Below, piece after piece: positions 4,731 to 61,170 of a DNA stretch of 64,000 nucleotides (within the stretch, counting starts at the first letter, position 1; every line of letters begins with the position of its first letter). A program made the translations under genes and the position numbers. Source of the DNA: a virus (Duplodnaviria > Caudoviricetes); the IMG/VR virus record IMGVR_UViG_3300014203_000001, positions 181,714 through 245,713 of that record; one strand, 5' to 3'. The notes under the pieces are model-generated. The model did no database searches and was not told the DNA's origin. It was given only the letters and a program-made list of their open reading frames with translations.

Positions 4731-5894
4731 ATGCTTACAGAGATAGCGACAAGGGTAAATACAGTGAATAAATTATTTGTGGAGGTACATATTGCAGATT
4801 TACATTTCGGAGTTTTGAACCCATTATTACAATTTAATATACTCAGGGATCAGTTCTTAAACTACCTAGAAAATATGGCTATTATCGACATAGTATCCAT
4901 AAATGGAGATATATTCGAGCATAAGTTTATGGCTAATTCGGATGCTATTATGTATGCGTGTTATTTCATAGAAGCATTGGTTGATATATGTAGAAGAAAA
5001 GGCGCTACTCTTGTTATAGTCGATGGTACAACCTCACATGAAGGGGATCAGTTAAAATTATTCTATCCATACGTTGGAGTAGATAAAGGTGTAGACGTTA
5101 GAATAGTAGAAGAAGTACGATTTGAATATATTAAAGGTAAAAAGGTTCTAATCATACCAGAGATGTATGGTAAAGGTAAAGAATACTATGAGAAGTTTCT
5201 ATATCATAGTGGGATATATGATGCGGTTTATATGCATGGTACATTCAAAGGAACTATATATGGAAAAGACCAAGCAGATCTAGATTCGGATAGAGAACCA
5301 GTGTTCTCTATAGAACATTTCATCAATTGTGCAGGTCCTATTATGTCAGGGCACAGGCATACTCCAGGATGTTTTAGTACATATTTCTATTACTGTGGAA
5401 CTCCAATTAGAGATAAGTTTGGAGAAGAAGAAGATAAAGGATTCATGATCCTAATACATAATACAGATTCGAGAGAACACTACGTTCATTTCGAACCAAT
5501 AGAGTCGTTTAGATATGATACTATTAACCTGGATGATATCATCGATAACGATCCTAAGGACGTTATATTTTACATAAAGAATCTACAGGCTAATGGGATA
5601 CATAATATACGGGTACAACTTACAAAGAACAATGAAGATAATATAAATATACTTAAGTCTCACTTTAGAGGGAATTCTTCTATAAAAATAGATGCTAACT
5701 TTAAGAATGAACAAGTAATAGAGAATATGAAAAGTCTAGATGCCAAATATAAAGAGAACCAATATGTCTATAACAAAGACCTATCAGAATATGATAAGCT
5801 AAGCAGATATATAAACCAAAACAAAGGCTATGTGTACATTACAGCTCAAGGATTAGAAGAATTTATTGCAAAAATTACAGACTCTACATTTTAA
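4731..5894 (+). CDS. sbcD: SbcD/Mre11-like metallophosphoesterase nuclease
   Basis: ADLH, GDIF, GTTSHE, MHG, GHRH motifs; start at M16 after GGAGG; N-terminus MLTEIATRV. Confidence 0.85.
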   Translation: MLTEIATRVNTVNKLFVEVHIADLHFGVLNPLLQFNILRDQFLNYLENMAIIDIVSINGDIFEHKFMANSDAIMYACYFIEALVDICRRKGATLVIVDGTTSHEGDQLKLFYPYVGVDKGVDVRIVEEVRFEYIKGKKVLIIPEMYGKGKEYYEKFLYHSGIYDAVYMHGTFKGTIYGKDQADLDSDREPVFSIEHFINCAGPIMSGHRHTPGCFSTYFYYCGTPIRDKFGEEEDKGFMILIHNTDSREHYVHFEPIESFRYDTINLDDIIDNDPKDVIFYIKNLQANGIHNIRVQLTKNNEDNINILKSHFRGNSSIKIDANFKNEQVIENMKSLDAKYKENQYVYNKDLSEYDKLSRYINQNKGYVYITAQGLEEFIAKITDSTF

Positions 5895-5926
5895 GTAATA
5901 GAATAGAGAATAGGGGAGAGAATAGA

Positions 5927-7747
5927 ATGAATCTTAAAGATCGAAAGGCAAAATATGAACCAAAGAAAAAACCACCTGAAGGTATTAAATTTAACTTTGA
6001 TTTGACTATGATGAATACATTCTGCTCATATTGTTTATCTGAGAACACTGCAGTACATAGGAATTCTCTTGTAAACCTAAATACTATTTTTAGTAAAATA
6101 GACGAGGCTATGTTCGAAAGCAACCAAGAGCTTATTATTAGATTCAGATTCTGTAAAGCTGCATTACATACTAAACTAGAGAAGAAAGTAACTAAAAGAG
6201 AATATGTTCTTAGAGATATTTATGGTATGATAGGATCGCAATTCGAATCACTCGATCAAAACAATTTCCAAGAATTAGCAAATACTGAGATTTCTTGGGT
6301 TGAAGAGATGATATCATCTTGTATGGATATAACTTTCATAAATAACAAAGTATCAGATCTGCAATATACTTGCACAGAGTATAACGGGGCTAGCTATGCT
6401 AGTAAAATGGGCATTGTAAATAAATTGAAGACACAGATAAATGAGATACAGACTCAATTTAGAAGAAATGATATTGAGAAAGACGGAGAGAATGACACAT
6501 TCAAATTATCCCAAGCAGGACCCGCCGTGTATGCTATATGTAATAAAAAGAATAGACCTTCTTATAAATTAGCCACTGGAATGCAAGGGTTTAATGATAT
6601 ACTTGCGGGAGGATTTGAGGGGGGTAGGGTATATTGTTTATTTGGTCTTCCTGGAGAGGGAAAAACTATCACTTTACTAAACTTATTATTCCAGCTTAAG
6701 AAGTATAATAGAAATTATGTCTGTAAAGATAAAACAAAACGCCCATGTATCGTTCTGCTAACGATGGAAAACCAAACAGAAGAAGGTATTCAAACTATGT
6801 TTAATATTGCCTGCTCATCTGAGGATCTTTCATCATACCCTCCAGAAGTAGCTCTTCAGTTAATGATGGCTAAAGAATTAGCTGTAACAATGGATTCCCC
6901 TATAGATATCGTCATTAAGTACAAGCCAATCAATTCAGTAAATACCAACTACCTATATAAATTAACAGAAGATCTTGAGGATGAAGGATACGAAGTTATC
7001 GCAATGCTTCAAGACTACATAAAACGAATCAAACCTATGGATGAAAACAAAGAAGAAAGATTTAGATTAGGTAATGTAATCAATGACTTCAAAAACTTTG
7101 CTATATATAAAGAGATACCTGTTATCACCGCTTCCCAATTCAACCGAGAAGCTGCTAGAATAGTAGATGAGAGCCGTGGTAGTAATAAAAACGACCTAGT
7201 TAAGAAACTAGGCAGAGCCAATATTGGAGAGTCTTCATTGATTGATGAAAATCTAGATGCCACTATATTTATTACCCCTGAATGGGTAGGAAATCAAAAA
7301 TATATGGGCTTCAAAATAAGTAAGCACCGATACAAAATGTTCACGAAAGTAGCCGCATTTTATCAACCATTCGAAGAAGGAAATGAAGTTAGACTTATGG
7401 AGGATGAAGGATTAACACGACCTCTATATAAAGAAAGTCTTGTTAGGGATGCAGACGAAATCAAGAAAACCTTCGGTGATACTATACGCTTCTCAACAGT
7501 TAGAGAGATTAAGGACATAGAAGAGTTAGAAGCAAATGAAAGTAAGCTAATTACTAGCGGAACTGTATATGGGGAAAATAAACAAGCCGCATATACTACA
7601 TATAAAGATCCTGTATATACGATTATAGCAGAAAGGGTGCCAATTCCACCTAAACCTGTATTAACTACTATTGTTGAAAGAGTACCTATTCCTCAGCCTA
7701 AATTAACTATTATTGCAGAGAGGGTAAAGATACCAGGTGTAGCATAA
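5927..7747 (+). CDS. dnaB: DnaB-like (SF4) replicative helicase
   Basis: Walker A GLPGEGKT, TMEN, QDY, TASQFNR; C-terminal tail with three IAERV-like repeats. Confidence 0.88.
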   Translation: MNLKDRKAKYEPKKKPPEGIKFNFDLTMMNTFCSYCLSENTAVHRNSLVNLNTIFSKIDEAMFESNQELIIRFRFCKAALHTKLEKKVTKREYVLRDIYGMIGSQFESLDQNNFQELANTEISWVEEMISSCMDITFINNKVSDLQYTCTEYNGASYASKMGIVNKLKTQINEIQTQFRRNDIEKDGENDTFKLSQAGPAVYAICNKKNRPSYKLATGMQGFNDILAGGFEGGRVYCLFGLPGEGKTITLLNLLFQLKKYNRNYVCKDKTKRPCIVLLTMENQTEEGIQTMFNIACSSEDLSSYPPEVALQLMMAKELAVTMDSPIDIVIKYKPINSVNTNYLYKLTEDLEDEGYEVIAMLQDYIKRIKPMDENKEERFRLGNVINDFKNFAIYKEIPVITASQFNREAARIVDESRGSNKNDLVKKLGRANIGESSLIDENLDATIFITPEWVGNQKYMGFKISKHRYKMFTKVAAFYQPFEEGNEVRLMEDEGLTRPLYKESLVRDADEIKKTFGDTIRFSTVREIKDIEELEANESKLITSGTVYGENKQAAYTTYKDPVYTIIAERVPIPPKPVLTTIVERVPIPQPKLTIIAERVKIPGVA

Positions 7748-7762
7748 CTACACCTGCGTATA

Positions 7763-10410: not shown

Positions 10411-10866
10411 ATGATTATTAAACCACTAATGCAAATCGTAACACGTATTAACCCACTAACAGGTAAAGAGGAAGCACCAAAAACCCCGCCTGAGCTTAAA
10501 CAGTATCTACTGTTGTTACATTTCATCGAGGATACCAATAAGGAAGCTAAGGATTTTGAAATCATCACTGGAAGAAAAGAGACATTTGATTATCTACTTG
10601 AGAATATCGATTCTATCGATCTTACCCAAAGTCATGTAATGTCTCAGAATACCCCATTAGAAAATGCAATCACCGTATATAGTTTCTTACGCTTATGCTT
10701 AGAAAAGCATATGAACGAATCAGAAAAAGAAACTATTGACTACGATGAAACTATGCTTAATGAGCATATGGTAAACTTCTATGACAGCATGTCTGAAGAA
10801 GAACTAGATGCTCTTTATGAGGAAGAAATCAATCAAGCTTTTAAACCATATAATGGTGAAGAGTAA
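10411..10866 (+). CDS. Hypothetical acidic protein with N-terminal LMQIVTRI motif
   Basis: GGGAGG RBS; early-type motif at 10352. Confidence 0.7.
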   Translation: MIIKPLMQIVTRINPLTGKEEAPKTPPELKQYLLLLHFIEDTNKEAKDFEIITGRKETFDYLLENIDSIDLTQSHVMSQNTPLENAITVYSFLRLCLEKHMNESEKETIDYDETMLNEHMVNFYDSMSEEELDALYEEEINQAFKPYNGEE

Positions 10867-12275: not shown

Positions 12276-13151
12276 ATGTGGAACAATAACTCTTGGGGAA
12301 ATAATGGTATGGGTGCAAATATGGGAACAGGATTTGCTAATACCAATACCCAAACCATTCCAATGAACCAAACTTTAACAAAAGAAGAATGCATTAAACT
12401 GCAAGAGAAAGGTCCTAAATTCTCATTCAACTTGACTGAGACTGAATACCTTCGTGCTATTTGTGCACACAAAGATCCTGTAAATGGAAATATCTCATTG
12501 AAAGATAATAATGATGGTACACATACTTGTGGGATTTGCCATGAAACATTTACTCTATTAGATCCAGATAAATTTGATCGCGCTGCAATTGAAGATATCT
12601 GCGCTGATTTCAATGATCTATTCCAAACGATTAAAACTATGTATGGTCCTGTGCCAATTGAAGCTGGTCGTGACTTCTACTCATTCGTAGGATTTATTCC
12701 TCATATACCTGAATTATACGAAGTAGCTTCAGAGTACTTTGGTAAGATTGAAAACACTGGTAGAGGTGTTACTGATAATCGTTCTATGCATGGAGCTAAT
12801 CTTCTTTATGCAATGATGAATCCTCAGTATCCAATGGGAGTTCCTATGGGAGCTGCAGTAAATGCACCGCCAAATGCAGATGCTAATTTCCAACAATACC
12901 AACAATGGTTAGCATCTCAACAACAAGCCCAACAACAGGGTCAACCACAATTCCAACAACCAACACAAAGTCAATTTGGTAGTGTACAAACACCAAATGC
13001 CAACTTTGCGGCAGGACAACCAAATCCAGCATATGCACCACAAAATAATGGATTTGTAAACCCAATCGGATTTGTCGAAGAAAATCAAACAGCCGCAGTA
13101 GGAGCACCTCCTACACCAGCAGCAAATGTAACCTCAGGATTTAGAAGCTAA
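12276..13151 (+). CDS. Zn-binding protein with N/G-rich N-terminus and Q/P/N-rich disordered C-terminus
   Basis: CAH...HTCGIC cluster; low-complexity ends; both promoter motifs upstream. Confidence 0.7.
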   Translation: MWNNNSWGNNGMGANMGTGFANTNTQTIPMNQTLTKEECIKLQEKGPKFSFNLTETEYLRAICAHKDPVNGNISLKDNNDGTHTCGICHETFTLLDPDKFDRAAIEDICADFNDLFQTIKTMYGPVPIEAGRDFYSFVGFIPHIPELYEVASEYFGKIENTGRGVTDNRSMHGANLLYAMMNPQYPMGVPMGAAVNAPPNADANFQQYQQWLASQQQAQQQGQPQFQQPTQSQFGSVQTPNANFAAGQPNPAYAPQNNGFVNPIGFVEENQTAAVGAPPTPAANVTSGFRS

Positions 13152-16756: not shown

Positions 16757-16818
16757 ATTACATACAAAAAGGCATCGTTAAGATGCCTTTATTTTTTATA
16801 AATAAAGGAGATACTACC

Positions 16819-17778
16819 ATGATTACTTATATTAAAAAAAGAGACGGTAAAGTAACGGACTTCAATGAAAGAAAAATCTCCAATGCAATTCTAGGAGCAA
16901 TGAAAGAAGTATGGGGAAAAGAAATTAAAGCATCTACTCAAGCTAATAGAGCTGCTAGTATTGCTAAAGATATAGCTAATGCTATGGAAGAATCAGTTGT
17001 AGAAGTAGAGAAAATTCAAGACTTAGTAGAAGATAAACTAATGAAGAAATTCCCTGAAGTTGCTAAAGCATATATTAAATATAGACAAGAACGTACTCGT
17101 ATTAGAGAGATGAATAGCGATATCAATAAGCATATTAAAGAAGCATTGAGCTGTTCTAATGTGCAAAATTCTAATGCTAATTTAGATGAATATTCATTTG
17201 GCGGTAGAAAGAACGAAGCATCTAATATTATTCAAAAAGAGTTGGCATTGAGAGATTTCATTTCTCCAGACGTAGCAGATGCTCATAGAAATAATGATCT
17301 TTATATACATGATTTATCTGAATATACAGTTGGCATGAGCAATTGCATGTTTATCGATTTTGGGAGATTGCTACGTTGTGGGTTTGGTACTAGAAATGGC
17401 GATGTACGACCAGCTAATACATTTGCAACTGCTTGCCAACTAGTGGCAGTAATAGCACAATGCACAAGTCAAACTATCTTTGGCGGTGTAGCTAGTTCTA
17501 GTTTAGATCATGAGTTAGCACCATATGTAAGAAAAAGTTTCTTGAAGCATTACAAAAAAGGTTTAAAATATGCCGATAGAAGAAAGTCAAAAACGTGGAA
17601 AGATTTTGATATACTTTATAATCGTGTATCTAAAACAGCTTCTATTATTGCTAAAGGTAATATTTTTAAAAATTATTCTAATGCCGCATATGAATATGCT
17701 ATAGATCTTTTAGAAGAAGAGGGATTACAAGCCACACAGGCATTATACCATAACTTAAATACTTTGGAATCTCGTGCT
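16819..17778 (+). CDS. nrdD: Anaerobic ribonucleotide reductase NrdD, exon 1
   Basis: ATP-cone (IKKRDG), YIHDL, NCMFID, ends NLNTLESRA; AAGGAG RBS. Confidence 0.92.
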
Positions 17779-19098
17779 TAACGTTGAGCGTGGGCACCTT
17801 ATACGGCGACGTATATGTAAAAACTCGTGAACGTAGAAATCTACGGTGTGTTATCGAATATTTCATTTGTATTAACTGCAGGAAATGGCAGCTAACGATA
17901 ATGCTAACTGGGAACGTTTAAGTTTTTATATGGTATTATACATCATATAAAAATAAAATAATCCAGTGCTAAGCTGTATTGTAGTGAGAGGTGTAGTAAA
18001 AATGGCATCGATACCATTAAAAGAATCAGACTATGTAGGAAAGATTTATGGGAATCTTACAGTATTAAAATTCGATGGATACCGAGGAAACTCAACTAGT
18101 TTATGCGTATCAGTAGAATGTAAATGTGGAAATACCAAGTCTGTCCAACTTGGTAGTTTAAAACGCGGAACAACTAGAAGCTGTGGCTGTTTGAACAGAG
18201 TTAAAGTGGATGATTATATAGGAAAAACATATAATCGACTAACTGTTTTTGGGCATCATAGAAACGAGACGGGAGACTTATTCCTAGATTGTGATTGTAA
18301 GTGTGGGAATACAGCATCTATCCGATTTTATGATGTACTCAGATCAGCGACTAAAAGCTGTGGGTGTTTAATTGCGGAAACGAATTCTATAAATAACAAA
18401 GCTAGAAAACAATATAATGAATTCGAATATATAGATGAAGATACTGTTAAAGTATGGCTATCTAACTGCAATGAATTTATGATCTGCGACTCTTCAACTT
18501 GGGATGTATTACGATATTATCTGTGGAGAAAACATCACGAAGGATATGCCACTGCCGATTTAGATGACGGTAGGATAGTTGCGTATCATGTTGTAATATT
18601 AGAATGCCCAACTGGATATGTAAGAGATCATATAAATCGAAATAGATTAGATAATAGATATTCTAATTTAAGAGTTGTAACACCTACAGCCAATGCTATA
18701 AATAGAACGCTTCTAGATAAAAACAAATCTGGACATCCTGGGGTCTATTTCGATAAATCTCGTAATAGATGGAGAAGTTTTTACGCAGATCCCATAACTA
18801 AACAAACAAAATTTTCTGATTTTACTACATATGAAGATGCTCTAAAAGATAGAATAGAAAAAGAGCAAACTTACTATAAGATAGAAAGTCTAACGACTAA
18901 CAAAATTATTAATATCCCCATAGTTAGTAGAATAATAGCAGAACGGGTTAATATTAATAAGAGTAGATAGCTTAAGGGTGAAATTCCCTTAGGTGAAGCG
19001 CGAGACTCTCATGGTAGTCATTTGTATCATGAGATGATGATATAGTCTATTCCCCTAATAAATATCGGGAAACCGAGGGTACAACGAGAAGGAATAAG
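17779..19098 (+). mobile_element. Group I intron in nrdD
   Basis: Splicing restores LESRA|GAQLPFSSIDFG; P1 GUGCU/GGCAC with U-G at the 5' splice site; P10 GUUGAGCGU pairs with exon 2 GCGCUCAAC; P7 elements GAGACU and GAUAUAGUC; terminal G at 19098. Confidence 0.9.
18002..18970 (+). CDS. Intron-encoded HNH homing endonuclease with AP2 domain
   Basis: Two CKCG...SCGC repeats, DHINRNRLDNRYSNLR (HNH), SGHPGVYFDKSRNRW (AP2); GAGGTG RBS. Confidence 0.9.
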   Translation: MASIPLKESDYVGKIYGNLTVLKFDGYRGNSTSLCVSVECKCGNTKSVQLGSLKRGTTRSCGCLNRVKVDDYIGKTYNRLTVFGHHRNETGDLFLDCDCKCGNTASIRFYDVLRSATKSCGCLIAETNSINNKARKQYNEFEYIDEDTVKVWLSNCNEFMICDSSTWDVLRYYLWRKHHEGYATADLDDGRIVAYHVVILECPTGYVRDHINRNRLDNRYSNLRVVTPTANAINRTLLDKNKSGHPGVYFDKSRNRWRSFYADPITKQTKFSDFTTYEDALKDRIEKEQTYYKIESLTTNKIINIPIVSRIIAERVNINKSR

Positions 19099-20763
19099 GG
19101 CGCTCAACTCCCCTTCTCATCAATTGATTTCGGAGATGATACTTCATTCGAAGGTAGAAAAATTACAGAGTGGTGTTTACGCGCTTCTATTGAAGGAATA
19201 GGAGAATTTCACCAAACTCCGATTTTTCCAATCTCAGTTTTTAAGCATAAGAAGGATATTAATGACAGACCAGGAACACCTAATTATGATCTAAAACAGT
19301 TAGCAATAAAATCTTTATGTAAATCTATATATCCTAATATGGTAAATAGTGATTGGTCTATGAACTGTGCAGATAAATTACTTACTCAATATATTATTTC
19401 AGATGATAACATTCCAAAGGATGCCCTACTTAATATTAGAATCGGAAATAAATTTCATAAAAGAATAAAAGCTAACGAGTTATGGGATAAAATTGTAGAA
19501 TTAGATGATGCTAAGATTAGCCATACTTATCATATAAATGGCACTATATCTATAGATTTGAGATTTACTGATACTATTGTTTGCATCGATGATAAAAATA
19601 GTCAATATAAAGATTATTCATTATCTGTAGATGAATGTATGGCTAAGATAAACTATATTTCAATGGATAAATTTTCTTATAGTATAACTACTGATAGTTT
19701 TGGATTTGATTATAATGAAAACGAACACTATCAACATCCAATTCCCGATTATGATTATGATACAGAAATGGCAACTATGGGATGCAGAACTTTAATAGGA
19801 TATGATGTTAATGGCATGGGATATAAAAAAACAGGTAGAGGAAATGTAACTCCTGTTACTATTAACTTAGCTAAGATCGGTCTGGACTATGGTATTGCAC
19901 TAGGTAAAAGAGCAGAAGCGGATATCGATGGGTTTGCGACCAAACTAAACTGTATGTTAGAACTAGCAGAAAAGGCTTTATTAAATAGATTTAATTATAT
20001 ATGCTCTCAGAATTATAAATCTGGTAGGTTTATGTATGTAAATGGCGTAATAGCCGATTCTAAAGCTAGTATAGAAAAAGGTATATTTGAATCTATGAAA
20101 CATGGAACTAATGCCATTGGTTATATTGGTGTTGGCGAAGCGATGTACGCACTTTTTGGTAAATATCATAACCAAGACAAGATAGTATTAGAATTTGCAA
20201 TTAAAGTTGTAGAAACTATACATAATTATGCTAAAGATGCTACTGCTCGTAATCACCTTAATTTCAGTGCATATGCGACTCCCGCCGAGGGCGCAAGTCA
20301 TACTATATGTAAAAACTTACAAAAAGAATATGGTAAAATCTCTGGTGTTTGTGATAGAGAATATATCACAAATTCACATCACGTGCCAGTATTTGAACAC
20401 GTATCAATATACGATAAAATTGATATTGAAAGCAAGTTTACTAAATACCCAGGCGGCGGGTGTATTACATATATTGAGATGGAATCTAATGTAATGAATA
20501 ACCCATCTGCGGTGGAGAAAGTAATAAACTTTGCTATGAGTAAAGATATACCATACTTCGCAATTAATTTTCCAATAGATAATTGTACTGAATGTGGATT
20601 CTCTTCAGAGATAGAAAATACTTGCCCTAAATGTGGCGCATCTTCTATATCTCGTCTACGCAGAGTTTCGGGCTACCTATCGACTTCCGTAGACAAGTTC
20701 AATAAAGGAAAACAAGCTGAGTGTAAGGATAGGTATAAACACTCTAAGAAAACAAAATTATAA
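19099..20763 (+). CDS. nrdD: Anaerobic ribonucleotide reductase NrdD, exon 2
   Basis: GAQLPFSSI, TPIFP, YPN, TMGCRT, GRGN, ATPAE, YITNSHH, CxxC-CxxC, RRVSGYL glycyl-radical motif. Confidence 0.92.
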   Translation, partial: GAQLPFSSIDFGDDTSFEGRKITEWCLRASIEGIGEFHQTPIFPISVFKHKKDINDRPGTPNYDLKQLAIKSLCKSIYPNMVNSDWSMNCADKLLTQYIISDDNIPKDALLNIRIGNKFHKRIKANELWDKIVELDDAKISHTYHINGTISIDLRFTDTIVCIDDKNSQYKDYSLSVDECMAKINYISMDKFSYSITTDSFGFDYNENEHYQHPIPDYDYDTEMATMGCRTLIGYDVNGMGYKKTGRGNVTPVTINLAKIGLDYGIALGKRAEADIDGFATKLNCMLELAEKALLNRFNYICSQNYKSGRFMYVNGVIADSKASIEKGIFESMKHGTNAIGYIGVGEAMYALFGKYHNQDKIVLEFAIKVVETIHNYAKDATARNHLNFSAYATPAEGASHTICKNLQKEYGKISGVCDREYITNSHHVPVFEHVSIYDKIDIESKFTKYPGGGCITYIEMESNVMNNPSAVEKVINFAMSKDIPYFAINFPIDNCTECGFSSEIENTCPKCGASSISRLRRVSGYLSTSVDKFNKGKQAECKDRYKHSKKTKL

Positions 20764-21630: not shown

Positions 21631-21679
21631 AAGAAAGGGAATATTCCCTTTCTTTTTTATTTTTAGGAGGTTAATTAAT

Positions 21680-22186: not shown

Positions 22187-22219
22187 TGGATAGAGAATGT
22201 CCACATAATAAAAGAGGAG

Positions 22220-22747: not shown

Positions 22748-22819
22748 TTATAATAAATAAAAATATAGTGGACTAGTCTATAATGGCTAGTCCACTATTT
22801 CTGTATATAATTTCTCAAT

Positions 22820-22838
22820 TATATATTATATAGGTGAG
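22820..22838 (+). promoter_or_regulatory. Early-type phage promoter motif
   Basis: TATATATTATATAGGTGAG. Confidence 0.75.
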
Positions 22839-22879
22839 TACAAATATATGATACTCATAAAATATAGGAGGTGTATGAA

Positions 22880-23407: not shown

Positions 23408-23409
23408 AG

Positions 23410-40606: not shown

Positions 40607-40712
40607 TACACATATACATAGGAGAGTATTATGCTCTCCTATTTTATTTTTTAATTCACGATTGACTTATATGTAATCACATTAGAATAAAATAAGAGGG
40701 AGAATGATAATT

Positions 40713-41873: not shown

Positions 41874-41885
41874 GGAGGAATTAAA

Positions 41886-46743: not shown

Positions 46744-46762
46744 CATATATTATATATGTGAG
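46744..46762 (+). promoter_or_regulatory. Early-type phage promoter motif (ligase)
   Basis: CATATATTATATATGTGAG. Confidence 0.72.
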
Positions 46763-46784
46763 TAAAGAAAAGGAGGTAACAAAT

Positions 46785-49073
46785 ATGGGTAGATCTATAG
46801 ATCTGATATTAGAAGATCTATATAAAGGTAATCCTAATATTGTAAACGATGAAAGTACTGCTATCAATTCAGCAGTGCAAAAGTTTCTATGTAGTCAAGA
46901 ACAACCAGATATAGAAGAAATGAGAAAGATAATTCTTATCTCAAATATTCTATATAACAACAGCAATGAAAGACCACCATTAGAAGATGGAGTATATGAT
47001 TTGCTGGTAGTAAAGTATAATAATCTAACAGGAGGGAAATCACCAGTCGGTGCCCCACCAATACAGTTTGAACTTAAAGAAGAAACTGTATTGGAAAAGA
47101 AAGAAGATAAACTTTTAGAGATAGCTACTAGGGTGCAAGGAAAAGAAGATATGCTTTTCTATGATGCATTAGTTACTAATTCTAATCCGATTCCATCTGA
47201 CTTTGAGTATAAAGAAGATAATACTCTAATTGCTAAGAGAGTAGCGAATAGTGCTCATAATTACCCAGAGTTGGTTGGCACTCTCAATAAGTGTAAGTTT
47301 ACTCTAAATGCTCAAGCAGCAGAACGAGGATTATTATCAGGAGACAGTGCAGATACAGTAATTGTATTTGAAAGGGATTTCCTTCATGCTCATGTAAATC
47401 TTGGCATAAATGCTACCGAGTTGATCGCAGAATTAAAATATGATGGCGTATCTATCGAAGCCCAAGTAGATGGTGATACTATCGTATCAGCTGGTAGTAG
47501 AGGAGATACTGATAATAACGAAGCTGCAGATCTGACTCCTATCTTTGGTGGATATGTATTTAACAGAGCAAGTAACTATGTTCCTAAGGGTACAATCTTT
47601 GGAATTAAGTTCGAGGCTATAATTACATATGAAAATCTCCAAAGAATAAAAGCTAAGTATGGTAAGTCATATGCTAATCCAAGGAATGCAGTAATAGGGC
47701 TATTAAGTGGATTAGATAGTAGAAAGTTTAGAGATTATATCACTCTAGTTCCATTAGCATGTTCTAAAGAATTGAATATGCCTAATAGAGAAGTAGAAAT
47801 AAAGTTTCTGAATAAATATTATTCTTCTGGAGTAGATTTGAGATACCAAGTTTTACAAGGAGATTATACTACTCTACTATTCTTAGTAAAAAGATTTGTA
47901 GAAGAAGCAGAGTATATGAGATCGTTTCTTCCATTTATGTATGATGGGGTAGTCGTATCTTATACTGATCCTGCTATCATAAACTATCTTGGAAGGAAGA
48001 GATCTGTTAACCAATATAGTACTGCTATTAAGTTTAACGCTTTAAAGAAACAGACTATATTTAAAGGGTATACTTTTTCTATCGGTCAGAATGGATTAGT
48101 TACTCCATTAGCGCACTTCAACCCTGTTGAGTTTATGGGTGGTATTCATGATAAAACAACAGCTCATTCTCTTAGTAGATTTAAGAAACTGACTTTACGT
48201 GTAGGAGATATAGTGGATATAGAATTGGTTAACGATGTTATCTGTTATATTACAAAACCAGAGAATAGTCATAACGATTCCAATCCAAATCCAATAGTAG
48301 AGTTTCCTACACATTGTCCATCATGTGGGCAAGATTTATACCAATCAGATAGTGGAAATTCTGCAATGTGTCTTAACTTTAGATGCCCTGAGAGAAACGT
48401 TGGTAGAATGACTAATATGCTGAAGAAATTGAATATCAAAGATTTCTCTACTCAAACAGTAAGAGCATTAGATATATATAGTTTGACTGATCTAATCACA
48501 CTAAATACACAAACTGCAATGGATACGTTTGGTGAAGTAGTAGGAGCTAAACTAATGGAACGAATAGAACAAATTAAAAATCTAAATTATCCAGATTATA
48601 GAATAATTGGTTCATTAGGATTCAGTTCTATTGCTGCTGAGAAGTGGAAGAAGATAATGTGCAATATCAAACTAGATACTCTTATCAACGGATCAGACGA
48701 AAAGATAAGAGGTATATTAGGACCCATTAAAGGAATAGGTCCAGTCGTAGTTGATTGTGTAATTAAAGAACGTCATTTGTTTATGAGAGATTTAGTTACT
48801 ATATCCAAGCTACCAAATATACAATATACATATGGGGAGATAAAACAGCTTCCGATTGTTAGATTTACTGGGGTTAGAGATGAGAAATTAGAAGAGGTTT
48901 TACGTATACATAAATTCGATGCAGATGGAAACAAGTCTGTTACTAAACAGACGGATATTCTTATAGTTCCATATCAAGGATTTAAATCTTCTAAGACAAG
49001 TAAAGTTGGTCCTAATTGTCGTATAATGACACTAGATGAAGTATGGAAAGAAATACCAAAATACTTTCATTAA
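46785..49073 (+). CDS. ligA: NAD-dependent DNA ligase
   Basis: EDGVYD, ELKYDG, SRGD, NPRNAV, YDGVV, CPSC..C..C zinc finger, HhH, BRCT; start after AAGGAGG. Confidence 0.93.
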   Translation: MGRSIDLILEDLYKGNPNIVNDESTAINSAVQKFLCSQEQPDIEEMRKIILISNILYNNSNERPPLEDGVYDLLVVKYNNLTGGKSPVGAPPIQFELKEETVLEKKEDKLLEIATRVQGKEDMLFYDALVTNSNPIPSDFEYKEDNTLIAKRVANSAHNYPELVGTLNKCKFTLNAQAAERGLLSGDSADTVIVFERDFLHAHVNLGINATELIAELKYDGVSIEAQVDGDTIVSAGSRGDTDNNEAADLTPIFGGYVFNRASNYVPKGTIFGIKFEAIITYENLQRIKAKYGKSYANPRNAVIGLLSGLDSRKFRDYITLVPLACSKELNMPNREVEIKFLNKYYSSGVDLRYQVLQGDYTTLLFLVKRFVEEAEYMRSFLPFMYDGVVVSYTDPAIINYLGRKRSVNQYSTAIKFNALKKQTIFKGYTFSIGQNGLVTPLAHFNPVEFMGGIHDKTTAHSLSRFKKLTLRVGDIVDIELVNDVICYITKPENSHNDSNPNPIVEFPTHCPSCGQDLYQSDSGNSAMCLNFRCPERNVGRMTNMLKKLNIKDFSTQTVRALDIYSLTDLITLNTQTAMDTFGEVVGAKLMERIEQIKNLNYPDYRIIGSLGFSSIAAEKWKKIMCNIKLDTLINGSDEKIRGILGPIKGIGPVVVDCVIKERHLFMRDLVTISKLPNIQYTYGEIKQLPIVRFTGVRDEKLEEVLRIHKFDADGNKSVTKQTDILIVPYQGFKSSKTSKVGPNCRIMTLDEVWKEIPKYFH

Positions 49074-50506: not shown

Positions 50507-52282
50507 ATGAATCAGGCTGAATATATTCATAATTACATTGAGCAAACTTGTGATAAATTCAATCCAGAGTTATTTACAAGATCAGATACGGAGATTATAG
50601 ACGAGTTAAAGAAAATCGTCTTATCTTGCCAAAGAGATGGATTCTTTAAAATCCAAGTAAAAGGATTCCGTGTTGTTGAAGGATATTATGAAGTAAATAG
50701 TATCCTTCAAGAGTATGAAGATTTTCTACTATCTAAAAAATCCTCTAATGCTAGAGGAACAGAAGATAATAGATATAGTCACATAGACTTAAAATCTTCA
50801 GACCTTAAACTTCTTATAGTTACATACTATATTGAAGTTAAGGACGAGCGTGATACAATTGATGTCATAATTGCAGTACCAAGAGTTGTCGATAAATTCT
50901 ATTTTAGAATTAACGGCAGCTACTATTCTGCTATGTATCAAATTGTAGACGCATCGACTTATAATAGCAACACAAGCAAATCCGCTAAACATAGCGTTAC
51001 ACTTAAAACTATCTTTAAACCAATACGAGTATTTAGAAACGTTATTAAGAAGGGTAGTGATAAGAATGGATTAAAAACTACTTCTGGTGAAGAAGTAGAC
51101 GTTACAGCGTATGACAATAACAGTTTCTCTAAATCTGTTCCTGTTGCACTATATATTTTAGCTAAAATGGGATATTATGGAGCTATGGAATTCTTAGGAA
51201 TTTCTAACTCTATTGTCTTATCAAATCATGATCCAGAAATGCCAGAGGTATATTATACTTTCCATCCAAAGAAGAACTCCAATGTGCATATAAATGTACC
51301 TAGAATGTTATATGATGGTAATTTTGTTATCCAACATATAACGGTTGCTATGTGTGATAATATCAAAAAAGATACGGATGTAGAAGAGTTGTATTCTAGA
51401 AGTTATTGGGTATCGGCTTTGGGCGCTAAGTTTAATTTAAACAATAGTTATGATAAAGGTCTAAATATTTTAGATTCACTTGAACATGATTACGATATCG
51501 GAACCAGACAACAGATACATCTTCCTATTGAATATAAGAAAGATATATACTGCGTCCTAAGATGGATGGTTGGCGAGTATAATAATCTGAAACTGAAGGA
51601 TAATCTTAATATCATGACTAAGAAGCTTAGGTGTGCGGAATATCAAGCTTCAATATATGCTAATAAGATTGCTAATAGCATGTATCGTTTATCACACCAA
51701 GGGAATAAATTAAGTCTTAGTTCCATTAGGAAAGTTATCATAACCAATCCAATGTATTTGGTTACTCAGATTACCAGATGTCAATTAGTTAACTTTAGAA
51801 ATATTGTTACTGATATGGATTCACTTCTTGCATTAAAGTTTACATATAAAGGGATAAGCGGTATTGGAGAAAAAGGTGGAAATTCTATCCCTGAGATATA
51901 TAAACATTTGCATGTAAGTAATATGGGTATTCTAGATCCAGATGCGTCTTCACCATCAGATCCAGGTATTAGTGGCAGTATATTACCAATGCTGAAAACA
52001 TATGATGGCGGATATTTCTCTGAATTCGAAGAACCAATAACTGCAGAAGAAGAATACGCTAAACTATATAACTCATATAGGGAAGCTAGAGGTCTAACTG
52101 AGATATTGGAATTTAAGAGAAAAGTATTAGATGACAATACAATATCAGATGAAGAAATTTTGCTATCTAAAGATTGTGCAGATATCACAACTGATCTTAT
52201 GCAATCTACGGTAGCAGCAACTGAAGAAACAGAATTTATAGGACTACCATTAGATGGTAGTGGAAGGATCTACTATGAGTAA
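50507..52282 (+). CDS. Multisubunit RNA polymerase beta subunit, N-terminal half
   Basis: AVPRVVDKFYFRINGSYYSAMYQIVD and HLHVSNMGILDPDASSPSDPGISG (RpoB-like regions). Confidence 0.85.
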   Translation: MNQAEYIHNYIEQTCDKFNPELFTRSDTEIIDELKKIVLSCQRDGFFKIQVKGFRVVEGYYEVNSILQEYEDFLLSKKSSNARGTEDNRYSHIDLKSSDLKLLIVTYYIEVKDERDTIDVIIAVPRVVDKFYFRINGSYYSAMYQIVDASTYNSNTSKSAKHSVTLKTIFKPIRVFRNVIKKGSDKNGLKTTSGEEVDVTAYDNNSFSKSVPVALYILAKMGYYGAMEFLGISNSIVLSNHDPEMPEVYYTFHPKKNSNVHINVPRMLYDGNFVIQHITVAMCDNIKKDTDVEELYSRSYWVSALGAKFNLNNSYDKGLNILDSLEHDYDIGTRQQIHLPIEYKKDIYCVLRWMVGEYNNLKLKDNLNIMTKKLRCAEYQASIYANKIANSMYRLSHQGNKLSLSSIRKVIITNPMYLVTQITRCQLVNFRNIVTDMDSLLALKFTYKGISGIGEKGGNSIPEIYKHLHVSNMGILDPDASSPSDPGISGSILPMLKTYDGGYFSEFEEPITAEEEYAKLYNSYREARGLTEILEFKRKVLDDNTISDEEILLSKDCADITTDLMQSTVAATEETEFIGLPLDGSGRIYYE

Positions 52283-52514
52283 TATTATTTATGATCGCTG
52301 CTTTATATATTCCAGAGAACAACAGGAGACCAAGACTAATATAGAAACTTCAGCTGGAAGAAGTAAGCCTAAGTTCGGAAGTGTTATTGTCAAAGGAGTT
52401 CCTAAAATCTACACTGACATTATTACTTCTATGGATAAAGCTAGATATTCTGATTCTATCTTGATTATCAAGGGAGATATCAGAACTATTAAGTTTACAG
52501 AACCATCGAGCTAA
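52275..52514 (+). CDS. Small hypothetical protein
   Basis: 79 aa, overlaps the RNAP stop, followed by a hairpin. Confidence 0.6.
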   Translation: MSNIIYDRCFIYSREQQETKTNIETSAGRSKPKFGSVIVKGVPKIYTDIITSMDKARYSDSILIIKGDIRTIKFTEPSS

Positions 52515-52521
52515 TTTATAT

Positions 52522-52556
52522 GCCCCTATGAGAATTCTCATAGGGGTTATTATTTT
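52522..52556 (+). terminator. Intrinsic terminator
   Basis: CCCCTATGAG-aatt-CTCATAGGGG followed by T-rich tract. Confidence 0.75.
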
Positions 52557-52578
52557 TATAAGGAGGAATAAATAATAA

Positions 52579-52875
52579 ATGACAGAACTTTTACAAATAG
52601 CAGAAAGGAATAAGTTTGGTATTTGCCCTAGATGCCATAGTAAACTCTTTCTTTTAAATTCAACGTATCAGCTATATGCCATGTCAGAGAATGGATGGAT
52701 ATCTAGTGAGATAGATAAACATGTAGTCTCTAAAGCTGTATGTAAACAATGTGGATTTAGTATGGATATGAAAGTTACTATCAACGGGCTTGTCCCGATT
52801 GATTTTGTGGGAGAGCCTACAAAAACAGAAGTATTAAAATCTAATCCTATAGGAGAGGTGGAAAAAGATGTTTGA
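52579..52875 (+). CDS. Zinc-ribbon protein with N-terminal LLQIAER motif
   Basis: CPRC...CKQCG; AGGAGG RBS. Confidence 0.72.
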   Translation: MTELLQIAERNKFGICPRCHSKLFLLNSTYQLYAMSENGWISSEIDKHVVSKAVCKQCGFSMDMKVTINGLVPIDFVGEPTKTEVLKSNPIGEVEKDV

Positions 52876-53398
52876 TTATTTGAAGTTTACTAAACTAATA
52901 TCAACAATGTGTGATGAAAAAAGAATAAAGCTTGCTACTAGAGCAAGATTACCAGCTGAAGTATTGGGATATTTATTAGATAATGGGGTTAAGGTAGAGG
53001 GAGCTATTAATTTCCATGAAGATGAGAATTGCCATATTCTTATTATCTATGGAAAAACTGAGTATGCTTTACTTACAGATATTATAGACAATAGATATAC
53101 GTTTTGTATATTTGCTGATACTATACTATCTAATGATAATAAGTTTATGAAAATATTAGATATGACATTCGATTCGGTAATGACAATAATGTCATATATG
53201 TATCCAAATCCTCAATACACGCCAAAGCCATATATTAAAGATACACATAAAGAATTCTTCGAAGCTAAGATCAAAGATATATGTGTATGTAGTATATGGG
53301 CGGTATTCGGGGATAGTTTTATAGAGGAATATAAAACTGTATTCCCAGAAGATACTGAAATTACTAAGGTTATAAAAGTATTTGAAGATTCTATATAA
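52868..53398 (+). CDS. Hypothetical protein
   Basis: 176 aa, GAGGTGG RBS. Confidence 0.6.
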   Translation: MFDYLKFTKLISTMCDEKRIKLATRARLPAEVLGYLLDNGVKVEGAINFHEDENCHILIIYGKTEYALLTDIIDNRYTFCIFADTILSNDNKFMKILDMTFDSVMTIMSYMYPNPQYTPKPYIKDTHKEFFEAKIKDICVCSIWAVFGDSFIEEYKTVFPEDTEITKVIKVFEDSI

Positions 53399-53442
53399 TA
53401 ATATAAGGATGCACCTTTGTGCATCCTTTTTATTTTTTCGAT

Positions 53443-53461
53443 TATATATTATATTTATGAA
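53443..53461 (+). promoter_or_regulatory. Early-type phage promoter motif (histidine kinase)
   Basis: TATATATTATATTTATGAA. Confidence 0.68.
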
Positions 53462-53486
53462 GTATATAATAGAAAGGAGATAAAAT

Positions 53487-54161
53487 ATGAGTATAGCAAT
53501 TGAAAGAAAAGAACTACGTAGGCTAAATGGTTTGAATATAGTGGGGGAAATGGCTGCTGGGATGGCACATGAAATTCGAAATCCTATGACTACAGTACGA
53601 GGATATGTCCAGTATATAAGTGCAAAAGACACTAAGTATACACAGCAATTTGAGATTATGTTAGAAGAGCTAGATAGAGTTAATCTAATTATAACAGAGT
53701 TCTTAACTTTAGCTAGAGATAAAAAGGTTGAATTGAAGCGTTGCGATCTCAATAATATGGTACACAATATATATCCTCTTATCAATTCAGATGCGATATT
53801 ACATAATAAAATAGCGTCTATAGATTTGCATACAATACCAGAGATACTAATAGATGAGAAAGAAATACGTCAGCTAATATTAAACTTAACGCGTAATGGT
53901 CTAGAAGCTATGGATGAAAAGAAAACCTTAACTATAGCTACGTTTACAGATAAAGATTCTACTGTTCTTGCTATAAGAGATGAAGGACATGGAATAGATC
54001 CAGAAGTGCTTAAGAATATAGGCACTCCTTTTGTTACAACTAAATCTAACGGAACAGGTTTGGGTTTAGCTATATGCTACAGTATTGCTAATAGAAATCA
54101 TGCAGAAATAACAATAGATACGAATACTAATGGGACTACATTTTATGTAGCTTTTAAATAA
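53487..54161 (+). CDS. Sensor-less histidine kinase (HisKA + HATPase_c), sporulation-kinase-like
   Basis: AHEIRNP H-box, NLTRNGLEAM N-box, DEGHGI G1, PFVTTK F-box, GTGLGL G2; only about 12 residues precede the DHp domain. Confidence 0.93.
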   Translation: MSIAIERKELRRLNGLNIVGEMAAGMAHEIRNPMTTVRGYVQYISAKDTKYTQQFEIMLEELDRVNLIITEFLTLARDKKVELKRCDLNNMVHNIYPLINSDAILHNKIASIDLHTIPEILIDEKEIRQLILNLTRNGLEAMDEKKTLTIATFTDKDSTVLAIRDEGHGIDPEVLKNIGTPFVTTKSNGTGLGLAICYSIANRNHAEITIDTNTNGTTFYVAFK

Positions 54162-54209
54162 AAGAGGATTGTTCCTCTTTTATTTTTTATAATCATTCTT
54201 CTTTTCAAT

Positions 54210-57641: not shown

Positions 57642-57645
57642 TATT

Positions 57646-58617
57646 TTAATATTCATCCATTGCTCTATTACCTACTAAGATCATTGGGAAGTCCATATTA
57701 GCTTGAGCATTTCTAGCAACTCCAGCTCTAATATCTGGTCGCATATCTTTTAATAGAAAATCTGCTGGTCTTGGAACATTGGGAATAGATTGACCCGTTG
57801 TCATATCCATTACATCGAACCATTTATCTTGAGTCTCTTGATTATAGATTACGACTGGTTTGATATGTGGATTATTTTCTAATACCATAGCATTCTGCTC
57901 TGGCGTCATATTTTGCAGATAGCTATTATATCCAGCGTCTCCACTCATCATTCTTACTTCGCTATCCACATCAACTCCAACCATACCCATATTTCCCATA
58001 GGACTATTAATCTGCATAGGAGTTACATTACCAAATGGCATTCCTTGTACTGCACCAACTGGTATATTGATCATTGCATTATACATATCTGCAATTTTCT
58101 TATCATCATCTTCTGTTTCGTTAAGTTTCAATTCTTTAACACGTTTCATATCTAAGTCATGGCATTTACCAATAACACTATTCATCTCTCTAATAGCAGA
58201 GATTTTATTACCCATAAGACCAGTAGCAGTACCAGCCATTATTCCAATATAATCATATTTCTTTTTTAACGTTTTGCTAGCACGAATTGCTGCTAGATCT
58301 GCTTGGATTTGAGAACTCAACATATCTATCTGACCAATAGATCCTAATAACATAGCATTAGTTTGATCATAGGTTTCTTTATATGTAATATTACCATTAA
58401 GAGGTGATACTTCTTCTTTCTCTGCAGCTACATATTCTCCTGGGCTATCGGTATTCTTTTTTGCTGGAGGGCGACCTCTTCGTTTAGGTTCTGGATGTGG
58501 AGAAGGTTCTGCATCTGCAGCCCTATTAAGAAATTTATTACCGCTAAATCCAAATTTCTTATCTTTAGATTCAGTTGGGATGGGAACTCTAGTTGCTATC
58601 TCTAATAATTCAGCCAT
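57646..58617 (-). CDS. Hypothetical protein with N-terminal LLEIATRVP motif and AT-hook
   Basis: PKRRGRPP AT-hook; AACA-N6-TA motif at 58643-58654. Confidence 0.72.
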   Translation of the reverse strand: MAELLEIATRVPIPTESKDKKFGFSGNKFLNRAADAEPSPHPEPKRRGRPPAKKNTDSPGEYVAAEKEEVSPLNGNITYKETYDQTNAMLLGSIGQIDMLSSQIQADLAAIRASKTLKKKYDYIGIMAGTATGLMGNKISAIREMNSVIGKCHDLDMKRVKELKLNETEDDDKKIADMYNAMINIPVGAVQGMPFGNVTPMQINSPMGNMGMVGVDVDSEVRMMSGDAGYNSYLQNMTPEQNAMVLENNPHIKPVVIYNQETQDKWFDVMDMTTGQSIPNVPRPADFLLKDMRPDIRAGVARNAQANMDFPMILVGNRAMDEY

Positions 58618-58642
58618 ATTATTACCTACCTTCGTTTATTTT

Positions 58643-58692: not shown

Positions 58693-58720
58693 AATCTAAA
58701 ATATAGGAGGAAATTTTATA

Positions 58721-59110: not shown

Positions 59111-59229
59111 TTACATATGACCTAGCTTTAATTAGCTAGGTCTATTTCTGTGTCTTATACATTTTAAATCCGTCTCGGACATCTATATAAAGTTGTTATT
59201 GGCTCTTATAAGGGCTAATTAGGAGGTAT

Positions 59230-61170
59230 TTGTATATGATAAGCGGATATAAAGATGGTAGCGATTTAACAATTATGAATGCTACATATCACTACGGTAG
59301 AAAAGATGAGAGTGGTAAATTTAAAAAGGATAATATGACAATTGTATTTAAAGATAACGAAACAGGAAAGAAAGACTTCCGAACAATGTACGAACCGAAG
59401 TATACATACTACAAAACAGATGAAACTGTTGGGTATAATCAGTTCTTTATAGATAGAGATAAAGTAACTCCAATCACAGTTCCTTTCAAAGATTTAGATA
59501 AGAGTATCGCAGAGCAAACTGGTAGACTAGAAGAGTTCTATGATAATATTAAATGCGGTAATAGAAGAGGTAATAGAAGACTTCATTTAGATGAGAGAGT
59601 TTTTGGATCTGATCTTAATATAAACAATTTCTATAGGAAAGAGTTCGGAGACAAGTATATAAATGATATCAGATCAGTAACTAAATCATACATAGATATT
59701 GAGGCTAATATCAAACATATGAGAGGAGATTTCCCAGAACTAGGAGAGTGTCCTATAAATGCAGTATCTCTATTCGTAGAGAATACTAATACTTTATACA
59801 CTTTCATTTTAAGAGAGAATGATAATCCTCTAATCAAACAATTTGAAGATGAATTGGCAACTAGTGATTTCATTGGAGAATTTAAAACATTCTTAGAGAA
59901 AAATGTAGGAGGATGGAAGAAGCTTATAAAGTATAAACTAGATAAGATGGATATCAAACTTATCTTCTATGATGATGAAGTAGATATGCTAGCTAATATA
60001 TTCAGGATGATAAATATATTACAACCTGATTTTGTATTAGCGTGGAATATGGGTTTCGATATTCCATATATTATAGAACGTCTTAAAATTCTAGGAGTAG
60101 ATCCTAGAAAAGTTATATGCCATCCAGATTTTCCAGAGACGTATTGTGAATACATTGTAGATGAGATGCATAAGAGTATGCCAGAACAGCGTGGTGACTT
60201 TGCAGACATATCATCGTATTCAGTATATCTAGATCAGTTAATTCAGTTTGCATCTAGAAGAAAAGGACAATCAGCATTCGCAAGTTTAAAATTAGATGAT
60301 GTAGGAGAAGCAGTATGTGGCGTTAGGAAGTTAAGCTATAAGCATATTACTAATGACTTAGCTGAATTGCCGTACTTAGACTTCAAGACTTTTATTATGT
60401 ACAACATGATGGATGTTATGGTACAAAAGTGTATAGAAGAATCAACCTCTGATATAAACTATGTATTTGGTAAAGCTATTGCTAATTCCACTATGTATCA
60501 GAAAGCTCATAGACAAACTGTATATCTGGCTAACAGAGCAGTTACATCATTCTTATCAAATAACAATGTTATCGCAGGGAATAACATAAATAAGTTTAAT
60601 GAAAAGCCAACTGGGAAGTATCCAGGAGCATTTGTTGCCGATCCTTTAAATATATCAGACAAACCAAAGTCTAAAATAAATGGAACACCAGTCGCAGTAT
60701 ATAAAGATGCTAATGACTTTGATTATAAAAGACTATATCCTAGTTTGGCTCAAGAGTTTAATATGGCTCCTAATACACAGATAGGTATGATACAACTTCC
60801 TGATCAGATATATTGGAATGAGAATCCTTTGAAGAATGAGAAATTCTCTAGAGCAGGAACGTTTGTAGAGAATCTTGCATCTCATAATTATCTAGAGTTC
60901 TCTAGACGTTGGATGAATCTTGGTAGCTATGAAGATGTATATGATGATATAGTGGAGTACTTTACTCTTAAGAAAACTCCTAATAATGGTACTCTAGATC
61001 TTAATCTATCTAGAGGTATACGAGATATAGCATTCAGAATCAAGCCAGGAGAGCTTCTACAAATAGCAGAACGACATACTGGATTGATAAAGATAGCAGA
61101 TAGATATGTCGCTATGCCTAAAGAAGTAGAGGATAAAGTTGATGAATATAGAAAGGTGATGAGTTTATAA
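59230..61170 (+). CDS. Family B DNA polymerase, exonuclease plus motif A subunit (split polymerase)
   Basis: DIE (ExoI), AWNMGFD (ExoII), YNMMD (ExoIII), YPGAFV, DYKRLYPS; motifs B and C absent; start may be ATG 59236. Confidence 0.88.
   Translation: MYMISGYKDGSDLTIMNATYHYGRKDESGKFKKDNMTIVFKDNETGKKDFRTMYEPKYTYYKTDETVGYNQFFIDRDKVTPITVPFKDLDKSIAEQTGRLEEFYDNIKCGNRRGNRRLHLDERVFGSDLNINNFYRKEFGDKYINDIRSVTKSYIDIEANIKHMRGDFPELGECPINAVSLFVENTNTLYTFILRENDNPLIKQFEDELATSDFIGEFKTFLEKNVGGWKKLIKYKLDKMDIKLIFYDDEVDMLANIFRMINILQPDFVLAWNMGFDIPYIIERLKILGVDPRKVICHPDFPETYCEYIVDEMHKSMPEQRGDFADISSYSVYLDQLIQFASRRKGQSAFASLKLDDVGEAVCGVRKLSYKHITNDLAELPYLDFKTFIMYNMMDVMVQKCIEESTSDINYVFGKAIANSTMYQKAHRQTVYLANRAVTSFLSNNNVIAGNNINKFNEKPTGKYPGAFVADPLNISDKPKSKINGTPVAVYKDANDFDYKRLYPSLAQEFNMAPNTQIGMIQLPDQIYWNENPLKNEKFSRAGTFVENLASHNYLEFSRRWMNLGSYEDVYDDIVEYFTLKKTPNNGTLDLNLSRGIRDIAFRIKPGELLQIAERHTGLIKIADRYVAMPKEVEDKVDEYRKVMSL

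Follow-up and report, generated by a model that had tools for sequence, protein, structure and literature searches.

The stretch of DNA analysed here, in the following the window, covers the 64,000 nucleotides from position 181,714 to 245,713 of IMG/VR record IMGVR_UViG_3300014203_000001. It is the final 64 kb of a complete phage genome of 245,713 bp with direct terminal repeats and a G+C content of about 32%. Its genes encode a series of unrelated proteins that share a short peptide, termed the tag, with the consensus [LI]-x-x-[IV]-[AV]-x-R-[VI], often followed by proline. The closest cultured phages are the Bacillus phages AR9/PBS1 and BpSp, with about 31% protein identity for the DNA polymerase PolB and the DnaB-like helicase; nearer relatives are represented by metagenomic contigs only. 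Phage and AR9 have in common a PolB split into two proteins and two sets of split multisubunit RNA polymerase genes. Many intron-borne homing endonucleases are a further AR9-like feature. Relatives examined were G001, a 184-kb contig that is 75% complete and has 65–80% protein identity, and the whole genomes G002, G003 and G005. The helicase of G002 is 48% identical to the DnaB-like helicase of this phage. Roughly 93 core proteins are shared with G002, G003 and G005.

Each tagged protein has one to five copies. The tags in the window are listed below with the open reading frame (ORF) that carries them:

4734–4760, plus strand: N-terminal tag LTEIATRVN of SbcD (ORF 4686–5894), in an extension missing from AR9 gp002
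7616–7729, plus strand: three tags, YTIIAERVP, LTTIVERVP and LTIIAERVK, at the C-terminus of the DnaB-like helicase (ORF 5927–7747)
10426–10452, plus strand: N-terminal tag LMQIVTRIN of a 151-amino acid protein, function not assigned (ORF 10411–10866)
18911–18952, plus strand: double tag NIPIVSRIIAERVN at the C-terminus of an HNH-AP2 homing endonuclease (ORF 17966–18970, within a split nrdD)
46330–46683, plus strand: five tags in the tail of the non-virion RNA polymerase subunit beta-C (ORF 44278–46701)
47112–47138, plus strand: tag LLEIATRVQ in the N-terminal extension of an NAD-dependent DNA ligase (ORF 46758–49073)
52588–52614, plus strand: N-terminal tag LLQIAERNK of a 98-amino acid zinc-ribbon protein (ORF 52579–52875)
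58582–58608, minus strand: N-terminal tag LLEIATRVP of a 323-amino acid, largely disordered protein (ORF 57646–58617)
61018–61110, plus strand: three degenerate motif-like segments, IRDIAFRIK, LLQIAERHT and LIKIADRYV, in the C-terminal tail of PolB-N (ORF 59230–61170)

All peptides named in a preliminary description of this DNA were present in the sequence. Its positions for the DnaB copies were slightly out of frame; the in-frame copies lie at 7616–7642, 7661–7687 and 7703–7729. They are separated by proline-rich linkers, and the helicase tail lies outside the alignment with AR9 gp007. The true start of SbcD is probably the ATG at 4731, and the SbcD orthologue of G002 begins with MIRLIEVVRRD. 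The 151-amino acid protein has orthologues in G002, G003 and G005 with lineage-specific versions of the tag at the same end. The tags of beta-C, the orthologue of AR9 gp089, are located at 46330–46356, 46369–46395 and 46462–46488, followed by a double tag at 46642–46683. Again, the tail is outside the aligned region; G001 and G002 keep the tags with a shifted consensus. The ligase extension of about 158 residues is missing from AR9 gp095. The ligase has a second, weaker copy (NTLIAKRVA, 47220–47246), and G002 shows LIKVVERI at the place corresponding to the first. Orthologues of the zinc-ribbon protein bear MIEVIVRD in G002, LRKVITRV in G003 and LLHVIKRLP in G005. The 323-amino acid protein has an RGRP-type basic stretch and its gene is kept beside PolB in distant relatives; the version at locus L029 has the tag IEVAFRVV. 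In the ESM Atlas it belongs to a large viral family without assigned function, with a poor model. The tail of PolB-N is outside the alignment with AR9 gp132, and its triple is fixed in distant relatives, so these segments may be structural. An AlphaFold2 model of full PolB-N was confident for the exonuclease half, and residues 411–646 had a predicted local distance difference test score (pLDDT) below 50.

The frequency of the motif was tested on the 281 ORFs of the whole 245,713-bp genome against residue shuffles. The core [IV][AV]xR[VI] occurs 29 times, with 6.4 ± 2.2 expected. With leucine, isoleucine or methionine at position −3, 16 occurrences face 1.1 expected, and the core followed by proline was found nine times versus 0.2. 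A nine-residue weight matrix gave 23 matches scoring at least 14 against 0.15 in shuffles, a partly circular comparison as the matrix was trained on the same sites. The motif is well above background frequency. Copies within 30 residues of a protein terminus are overrepresented (17 of 32 versus 23% expected, p = 2e-4). The AR9 proteome has the motif at background only (5 versus 4.6 expected). Where a tagged protein has an AR9 orthologue, the tag is always placed in a terminal extension or linker outside the AR9-aligned region. The codons of arginine, valine and isoleucine differ among copies, and the sequence encoding the triple-tag DnaB tail has no DNA tandem repeat. This points to selection at the protein level, as the preliminary description had proposed, and rules out a DNA-level repeat or regulatory element. 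A prior description of the tag was not found in the literature searched.

Carriers within and beyond the window were identified by Pfam, PHROGs and mapping onto AR9. Genome-wide, there are about fourteen: nine nucleic-acid enzymes and five proteins without assigned function (98, 151, 323, 88 and 252 amino acids). The nine carriers initially described were thereby retained and extended by a superfamily 2 (SF2) helicase of the AR9 gp156 type, a gp226-like RNA polymerase subunit, a second HNH endonuclease and the 88- and 252-amino acid proteins. PolB-C, the catalytic subunit of PolB and also encoded outside the window, possibly has an internal tag site. The PolB-C gene is interrupted (genome positions 21317–24635): two ORFs match AR9 gp152, and an untagged HNH endonuclease gene lies between them at 22005–22790. 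The tag is concentrated on nucleic-acid enzymes, with 9 of about 30 tagged versus 5 of 251 other ORFs (p = 7.5e-7), and it is absent from all 20 homologues of virion proteins. An equal occurrence in structural proteins, which would have spoken against a functional address, was not observed.

Neither a tag nor a degenerate copy is present at the ends of the virion RNA polymerase subunits, gyrase A and B, UvsX, a Dda-like helicase, primase and SbcC. The preliminary description had already noted the lack of the motif in gyrase, RecA and Dda. Among the RNA polymerases, only non-virion subunits are tagged, which excludes a capsid-packaging signal. The gp226-like protein is the promoter-specificity subunit of the same non-virion enzyme as beta-C; the ends of the remaining three subunits of this polymerase are free of tags, degenerate ones included. 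Of the two complexes for which the preliminary description had noted a single tagged partner, SbcCD has the tag on SbcD, and this polymerase has it on beta-C and the gp226-like subunit. One tag per complex appears to be enough.

RNase H (231 amino acids, genome positions 124103–124798) has a tag-like KIIAARRVL about 25 residues from the C-terminus, with KIVATRVL in G001. It was not counted as a carrier because the segment is lost in G002, G003 and G005. HNH endonucleases ending in the tag comprise the one more outside the window and three in G001. Judging from these sequences, selfish HNH endonucleases have acquired the tag repeatedly.

Related phages keep the tags at the same protein ends and change them together. 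In G001, the motif was found 16 times versus 4.7 expected, with proline 5 times versus 0.11, and the tags are placed on matching ends of the same proteins. Of 120 helicase homologues with 39–73% identity, 19 have between one and three strict copies right at the C-terminus (0.7 expected, p = 2e-21), and many others have variant tags. The helicase family has more than 1,000 members, many of them with tagged tails. In G002, the same clients bear tags on matching ends, with V-[IV]-x-R-[VI] as the consensus. G003 has a V-I-x-R version on some clients only. In G005, the arginine is lost and the same ends bear hydrophobic L-x-x-[VI]-[IF]-x-x-[LI] peptides. The consensus shifts from I-A in this phage to I-V in G001 and V-I in G002, with p = 4e-7 for position 0 and p = 6e-5 for position 1. 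An in-step change on a dozen unrelated proteins per genome is what a single co-evolving reader would predict, and it would be hard to explain otherwise. The fast drift between phages that are 70–75% identical would suit a phage receptor better than a conserved host hub. A single shared reader of the tag probably exists. Enrichment, terminal bias, absence from AR9 orthologues and the concerted consensus change agree with the initial view of a short linear motif that is under selection, often multivalent and located outside the catalytic folds. The tag-bearing AR9-related jumbo phages are a large, wholly uncultured clade.

Two genes of the window encode candidate readers, and both had been put forward as hub candidates before. 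The first follows the polymerase:

61171–61875, plus strand: 234-amino acid protein with a predicted sliding-clamp (PCNA/gp45) fold, directly after the PolB-N stop codon

The protein of ORF 61171 had no match in Pfam or PHROGs. AlphaFold2, with an alignment of 14 homologues, yielded a two-domain model of the monomer with a pLDDT of 87.6 and a predicted template modelling score of 0.84. In a Foldseek search of the PDB, the best 50 matches listed were all sliding clamps. VIA-align gave Z scores of 9–10 over about 190 residues against PCNA, 9-1-1, the beta clamp and T4/RB69 gp45, and the structure search of the ESM Atlas agreed with a sliding-clamp fold. The first hub candidate of the preliminary description has thus gained a fold; its binding role is a prediction. 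An IVFRV within this protein was rejected as a tag, being part of a conserved strand of the fold. The PolB-N stop codon TAA is followed directly by the in-frame ATG of the clamp-fold gene (61168–61173), and read-through of this one codon would yield a fusion of PolB-N and the clamp-fold protein. Relatives instead have an overlap of 1 or 4 bases between these genes. The clamp-fold gene precedes the portal gene, and the order PolB, clamp and portal is kept in distant relatives. The family was found in all complete relatives tested, whatever their tag type. A hidden Markov model of the clamp family had no match among the AR9 ORFs; AR9 gp129, at the corresponding position, could be a diverged clamp.

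The second candidate is encoded within the replication gene block:

12276–13151, plus strand: 291-amino acid protein in which a zinc-knuckle core is flanked by low-complexity arms (enriched in N, G, Q, P, M, Y and F) and the C-terminal tip is conserved

In the protein of ORF 12276, C63, H65, C85 and C88 are invariant; conserved elements are NPIG[FY]VE and, at the terminus, S[GS]F[KR]G. The gene belongs to the core of the tagged clade and was not detected in AR9. Searches of Pfam, PHROGs and the PDB gave no match; the profile had a weak similarity to a zinc ribbon (Elf1) in the PDB with an E value of about 0.1. Its ESM Atlas features are nearest to FG nucleoporins at 0.75–0.82, a lead only, since scores below 0.9 are common for shuffled proteins. 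The layout recalls that of a bacterial single-stranded DNA-binding protein (SSB), with core, disordered linker and tip, or that of a condensate scaffold. The earlier nomination as a hub agrees with this low-complexity scaffold or SSB type, and the protein is a candidate for the reader role. Both families are present in every tagged relative, and phyletic profiling cannot choose between them.

We propose that the tag is a portable docking peptide on flexible terminal extensions or linkers. One shared phage-encoded receptor would read it and gather newly made replication, repair, late-transcription and homing enzymes on the replicating phage DNA. One tagged subunit would suffice to bring in a complex. 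SbcCD would be recruited through SbcD, the split polymerase through PolB-N, and the non-virion RNA polymerase through beta-C and the gp226-like subunit. The likeliest receptor would be the PCNA/gp45-fold protein encoded right after PolB-N. In that case, the tag would represent a new motif of clamp clients, and late transcription would be tied to replication through the tagged RNA polymerase, in the style of T4 gp33/gp55 and gp45. It is observed that the tag is real, selected, terminal, client-specific and co-varying across genomes, and that the clamp-fold protein exists. A docking tag read by a shared receptor, most likely the clamp-fold protein, is the best explanation at hand, though a tentative one that falls somewhat short of an even chance. 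The naming of the clamp-fold protein as the receptor is at best equally tentative. For the earlier idea that replication, repair and transcription machines are recruited to one hub, the selected, shared motif points to a common reader, and the hub binding itself is predicted.

Several observations weigh against the clamp as the reader. The tag fits none of the known clamp motifs, that is, the PCNA-interacting peptide (PIP) box Qxx[LIM]xx[FY][FY], QL[SD]LF or the T4 tails of the LDFL[FY] type, and it has no glutamine and no aromatic pair. The preliminary description had stated a mismatch to PIP box, QL[SD]LF and acidic SSB tail, and the comparison of consensus sequences bears this out. Relatives with helicase tails devoid of the arginine motif have the clamp family as well, so its occurrence is not discriminating, and ORF 12276 is distributed among the genomes in the same way. 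Copies on the polymerase are degenerate, whereas the best ones are found on the helicase and the RNA polymerase. The tagged 88- and 252-amino acid proteins are located amid structural genes. A clamp loader was not found, and PF13177 had no match; distant loaders could escape such detection. The chimallivirus Rhc protein has a clamp-derived domain that is a monomeric polymerase subunit with large-surface binding and not a peptide-client ring (PMC13648687). A complex prediction with three clamp-fold copies and the DnaB tail (residues 553–606) scored 0.02 against a mark of 0.32; it was run without controls and gives no verdict either way. The sole AAA+ protein found has 669 amino acids (genome positions 52162–54171) with AAA and AAA_lid_6 domains of the CbbX/SpoVK type, and a long N-terminal region without assigned function.

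The other readings place the reader elsewhere or do without one. The protein of ORF 12276 could read the tag as an SSB-like hub or condensate scaffold around phage DNA, with the multivalent arginine-plus-aliphatic tags binding its core or partitioning into the arms rich in tyrosine, phenylalanine, glutamine and methionine. The core with disordered arms, the invariant Cys/His knuckle and the conserved F[KR]G tip suit this role, as do the position in the replication block of the tagged clade, the lack of a detected AR9 counterpart and, as a lead, the likeness to FG nucleoporins. Three tags per helicase subunit and five on the RNA polymerase would suit avidity or partitioning. We consider this reading unlikely: the protein matched no fold or function, its ESM Atlas scores are in a range common among shuffled proteins, known SSB hubs carry the peptide on the SSB and not on the clients, and the homologue found in G001, a contig only 75% complete, has no low-complexity arms. 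In a stronger version, the tags would be the partition code of a membraneless replication factory, in which a condensate on DNA, built by the ORF 12276 protein with its FG- or prion-like arms, admits tagged phage enzymes and excludes untagged host proteins. This is improbable. If true, the chimallivirus nucleus would have a counterpart here that does without a shell and uses a linear signal for entry, and homing endonucleases would be admitted alongside phage polymerases, helicases and nucleases.

The partner could also be a hub of the host, for instance its beta clamp, its SSB or a nucleoid protein, and the tag would then plug the phage enzymes into the host machinery. That no phage clamp loader was found would suit such a partner, and the end of the AR9 helicase indicates that tails in this phage group can mimic host docking peptides. 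The tag does not fit the bacterial clamp-binding consensus, however, and with a conserved host pocket one would not expect the consensus to drift between close relatives, except where their hosts differ, which makes a host partner quite improbable. It is very improbable that the tag is a linear signal for import into, or targeting to, a proteinaceous replication compartment, and of the hubs considered this one has the least support. Intron-encoded homing endonucleases are tagged, as expected if the tag gives access to DNA; of the two RNA polymerases only the non-virion one has tags, and a tubulin homologue is encoded at 40704–41873. Against this, no chimallin-like protein was recognised among the large conserved proteins without assigned function by Pfam and PHROGs, in which no chimallin profile was searched directly, and a 614-amino acid candidate turned out to be the major head protein. 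Clear tags are missing from gyrase A and B, UvsX, Dda, primase and RNase H. According to a published PSI-BLAST search, PBS1-type phages are without chimallin (10.1101/2023.02.24.529968). The import gate of a nucleus-like compartment, one of the hubs initially suggested, finds no support in these observations. A modification or turnover site, be it an arginine-directed modification, a protease site or a degron, would regulate the enzymes jointly without a docking partner. The arginine is nearly invariant in three lineages, and the phage encodes zincin-type proteases among other enzymes. Yet the arginine is dispensable in G005, where tags persist at the same ends, no candidate enzyme was linked to the motif, and multivalency and uptake by selfish endonucleases suit recruitment better than degradation. 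This leaves such a site a very slim chance.

The proposed docking tag resembles several known systems. Like the clamp-client peptides, i.e., the gp45-binding tails of T4/RB69 gp43, gp33 and gp55, the PIP box and QL[SD]LF, it is short, located on flexible termini and shared by many unrelated DNA enzymes. Both kinds of system have one tagged subunit per complex, and a clamp-fold protein is encoded beside the polymerase. Polymerase, ligase, Mre11-type nuclease, helicases and endonucleases are among the clients, and in T4 also the late-transcription factors. In T4, the sigma-like gp55 and the co-activator gp33 both bind gp45; the tagged gp226-like and beta-C subunits would be the parallel here. 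In contrast to clamp-client peptides, the tag has aliphatic residues and an arginine, and often comes in multiple copies. Unlike in clamp-client systems, tags are placed on the replicative helicase and on a core subunit of an RNA polymerase, and no loader was found for the clamp-fold protein, for which binding is a prediction. The list of polymerase, ligase, Mre11-type nuclease, SF2 helicase, endonucleases and RNA polymerase specificity subunit parallels the established client sets of PCNA, beta clamp and gp45 (see also PMC9690074, PMC7892883, PMC6212786). The tag is closest in logic to clamp-client peptides, yet outside the sequence definition of all known ones.

The Rhc protein offers a second comparison, made by description only (PMC13648687; 10.64898/2026.10.01.755736). 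It comes from a related phage group that also has a split PolB and two multisubunit RNA polymerases, and it is a clamp-derived protein that works with the polymerase and supports transcription, too. Rhc is fused to RNase H and no client peptide has been described, whereas the clamp-fold protein here is standalone and RNase H is a separate gene. A non-covalent pair of RNase H and clamp in this phage would be a split form of the chimallivirus fusion. The acidic tails of the T7 gp4 helicase and the gp2.5 SSB, and the tip of bacterial SSB, are terminal replisome-docking peptides that are likewise placed on a replicative helicase and shared by different proteins. They are acidic, have an aromatic end and occur on one or two proteins; the tag is non-acidic, contains arginine, is present on about fourteen proteins and is also found at N-termini and in linkers. 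AR9 gp007 (L011:3583–5268), a DnaB-like helicase, ends with DSGIPF, close to the bacterial SSB tip DDDIPF/DDDLPF. AR9 may have a different, host-like docking peptide where this phage bears the tag. The chimallivirus nuclear import by PicA/Imp factors is another phage-encoded sorting of DNA enzymes, including intron endonucleases, to phage DNA. Unlike there, no shell protein was recognised here and several DNA enzymes are untagged. To our knowledge, no linear signal has been described for chimallivirus nuclear import.

Neighbouring genes provided further observations. The gene nrdD, for an anaerobic ribonucleotide reductase, is split into ORFs 16783–17781 and 19339–20763 (region 16783–20763), with the HNH-AP2 gene at 17966–18970 between them, which suggests a group I intron; NrdG is encoded at 21680–22186. 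NrdD and NrdG suggest that the host is an anaerobe. The region 40704–42779 encodes a tubulin/FtsZ-family protein of 389 amino acids (40704–41873; its Pfam match was weak and under the cut-off) and, after it, a conserved 297-amino acid protein without assigned function. Both genes are core in the clade and absent from AR9. A 224-amino acid protein with HisKA and HATPase_c domains (53487–54161) is a minimal histidine kinase without a sensor domain, unusual for a phage. Outside the window, a ThyX-type thymidylate synthase domain is part of a 444-amino acid protein (genome positions 120197–121531). This domain suggests that the phage DNA may contain thymine and not uracil as in AR9/PBS1. A 519-amino acid protein (genome positions 64303–65862) joins a MazF/PemK-like toxin and a GNAT acetyltransferase domain.

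If one reader exists, the tags would be a genome-wide address system across a large uncultured clade of AR9-related jumbo phages. Such a system would account for the assembly of replication and transcription machinery on DNA in a phage that encodes this machinery itself and has no recognised shell protein. It could also link late transcription to replication along a path different from that of T4. Selfish homing endonucleases would borrow the address label of their host phage. A quick co-evolution of tag and reader could prevent an exchange of machinery between co-infecting relatives. For the five proteins without assigned function, the tag predicts a role related to DNA, and its arginine is a short, mutable handle for pull-downs and localisation.

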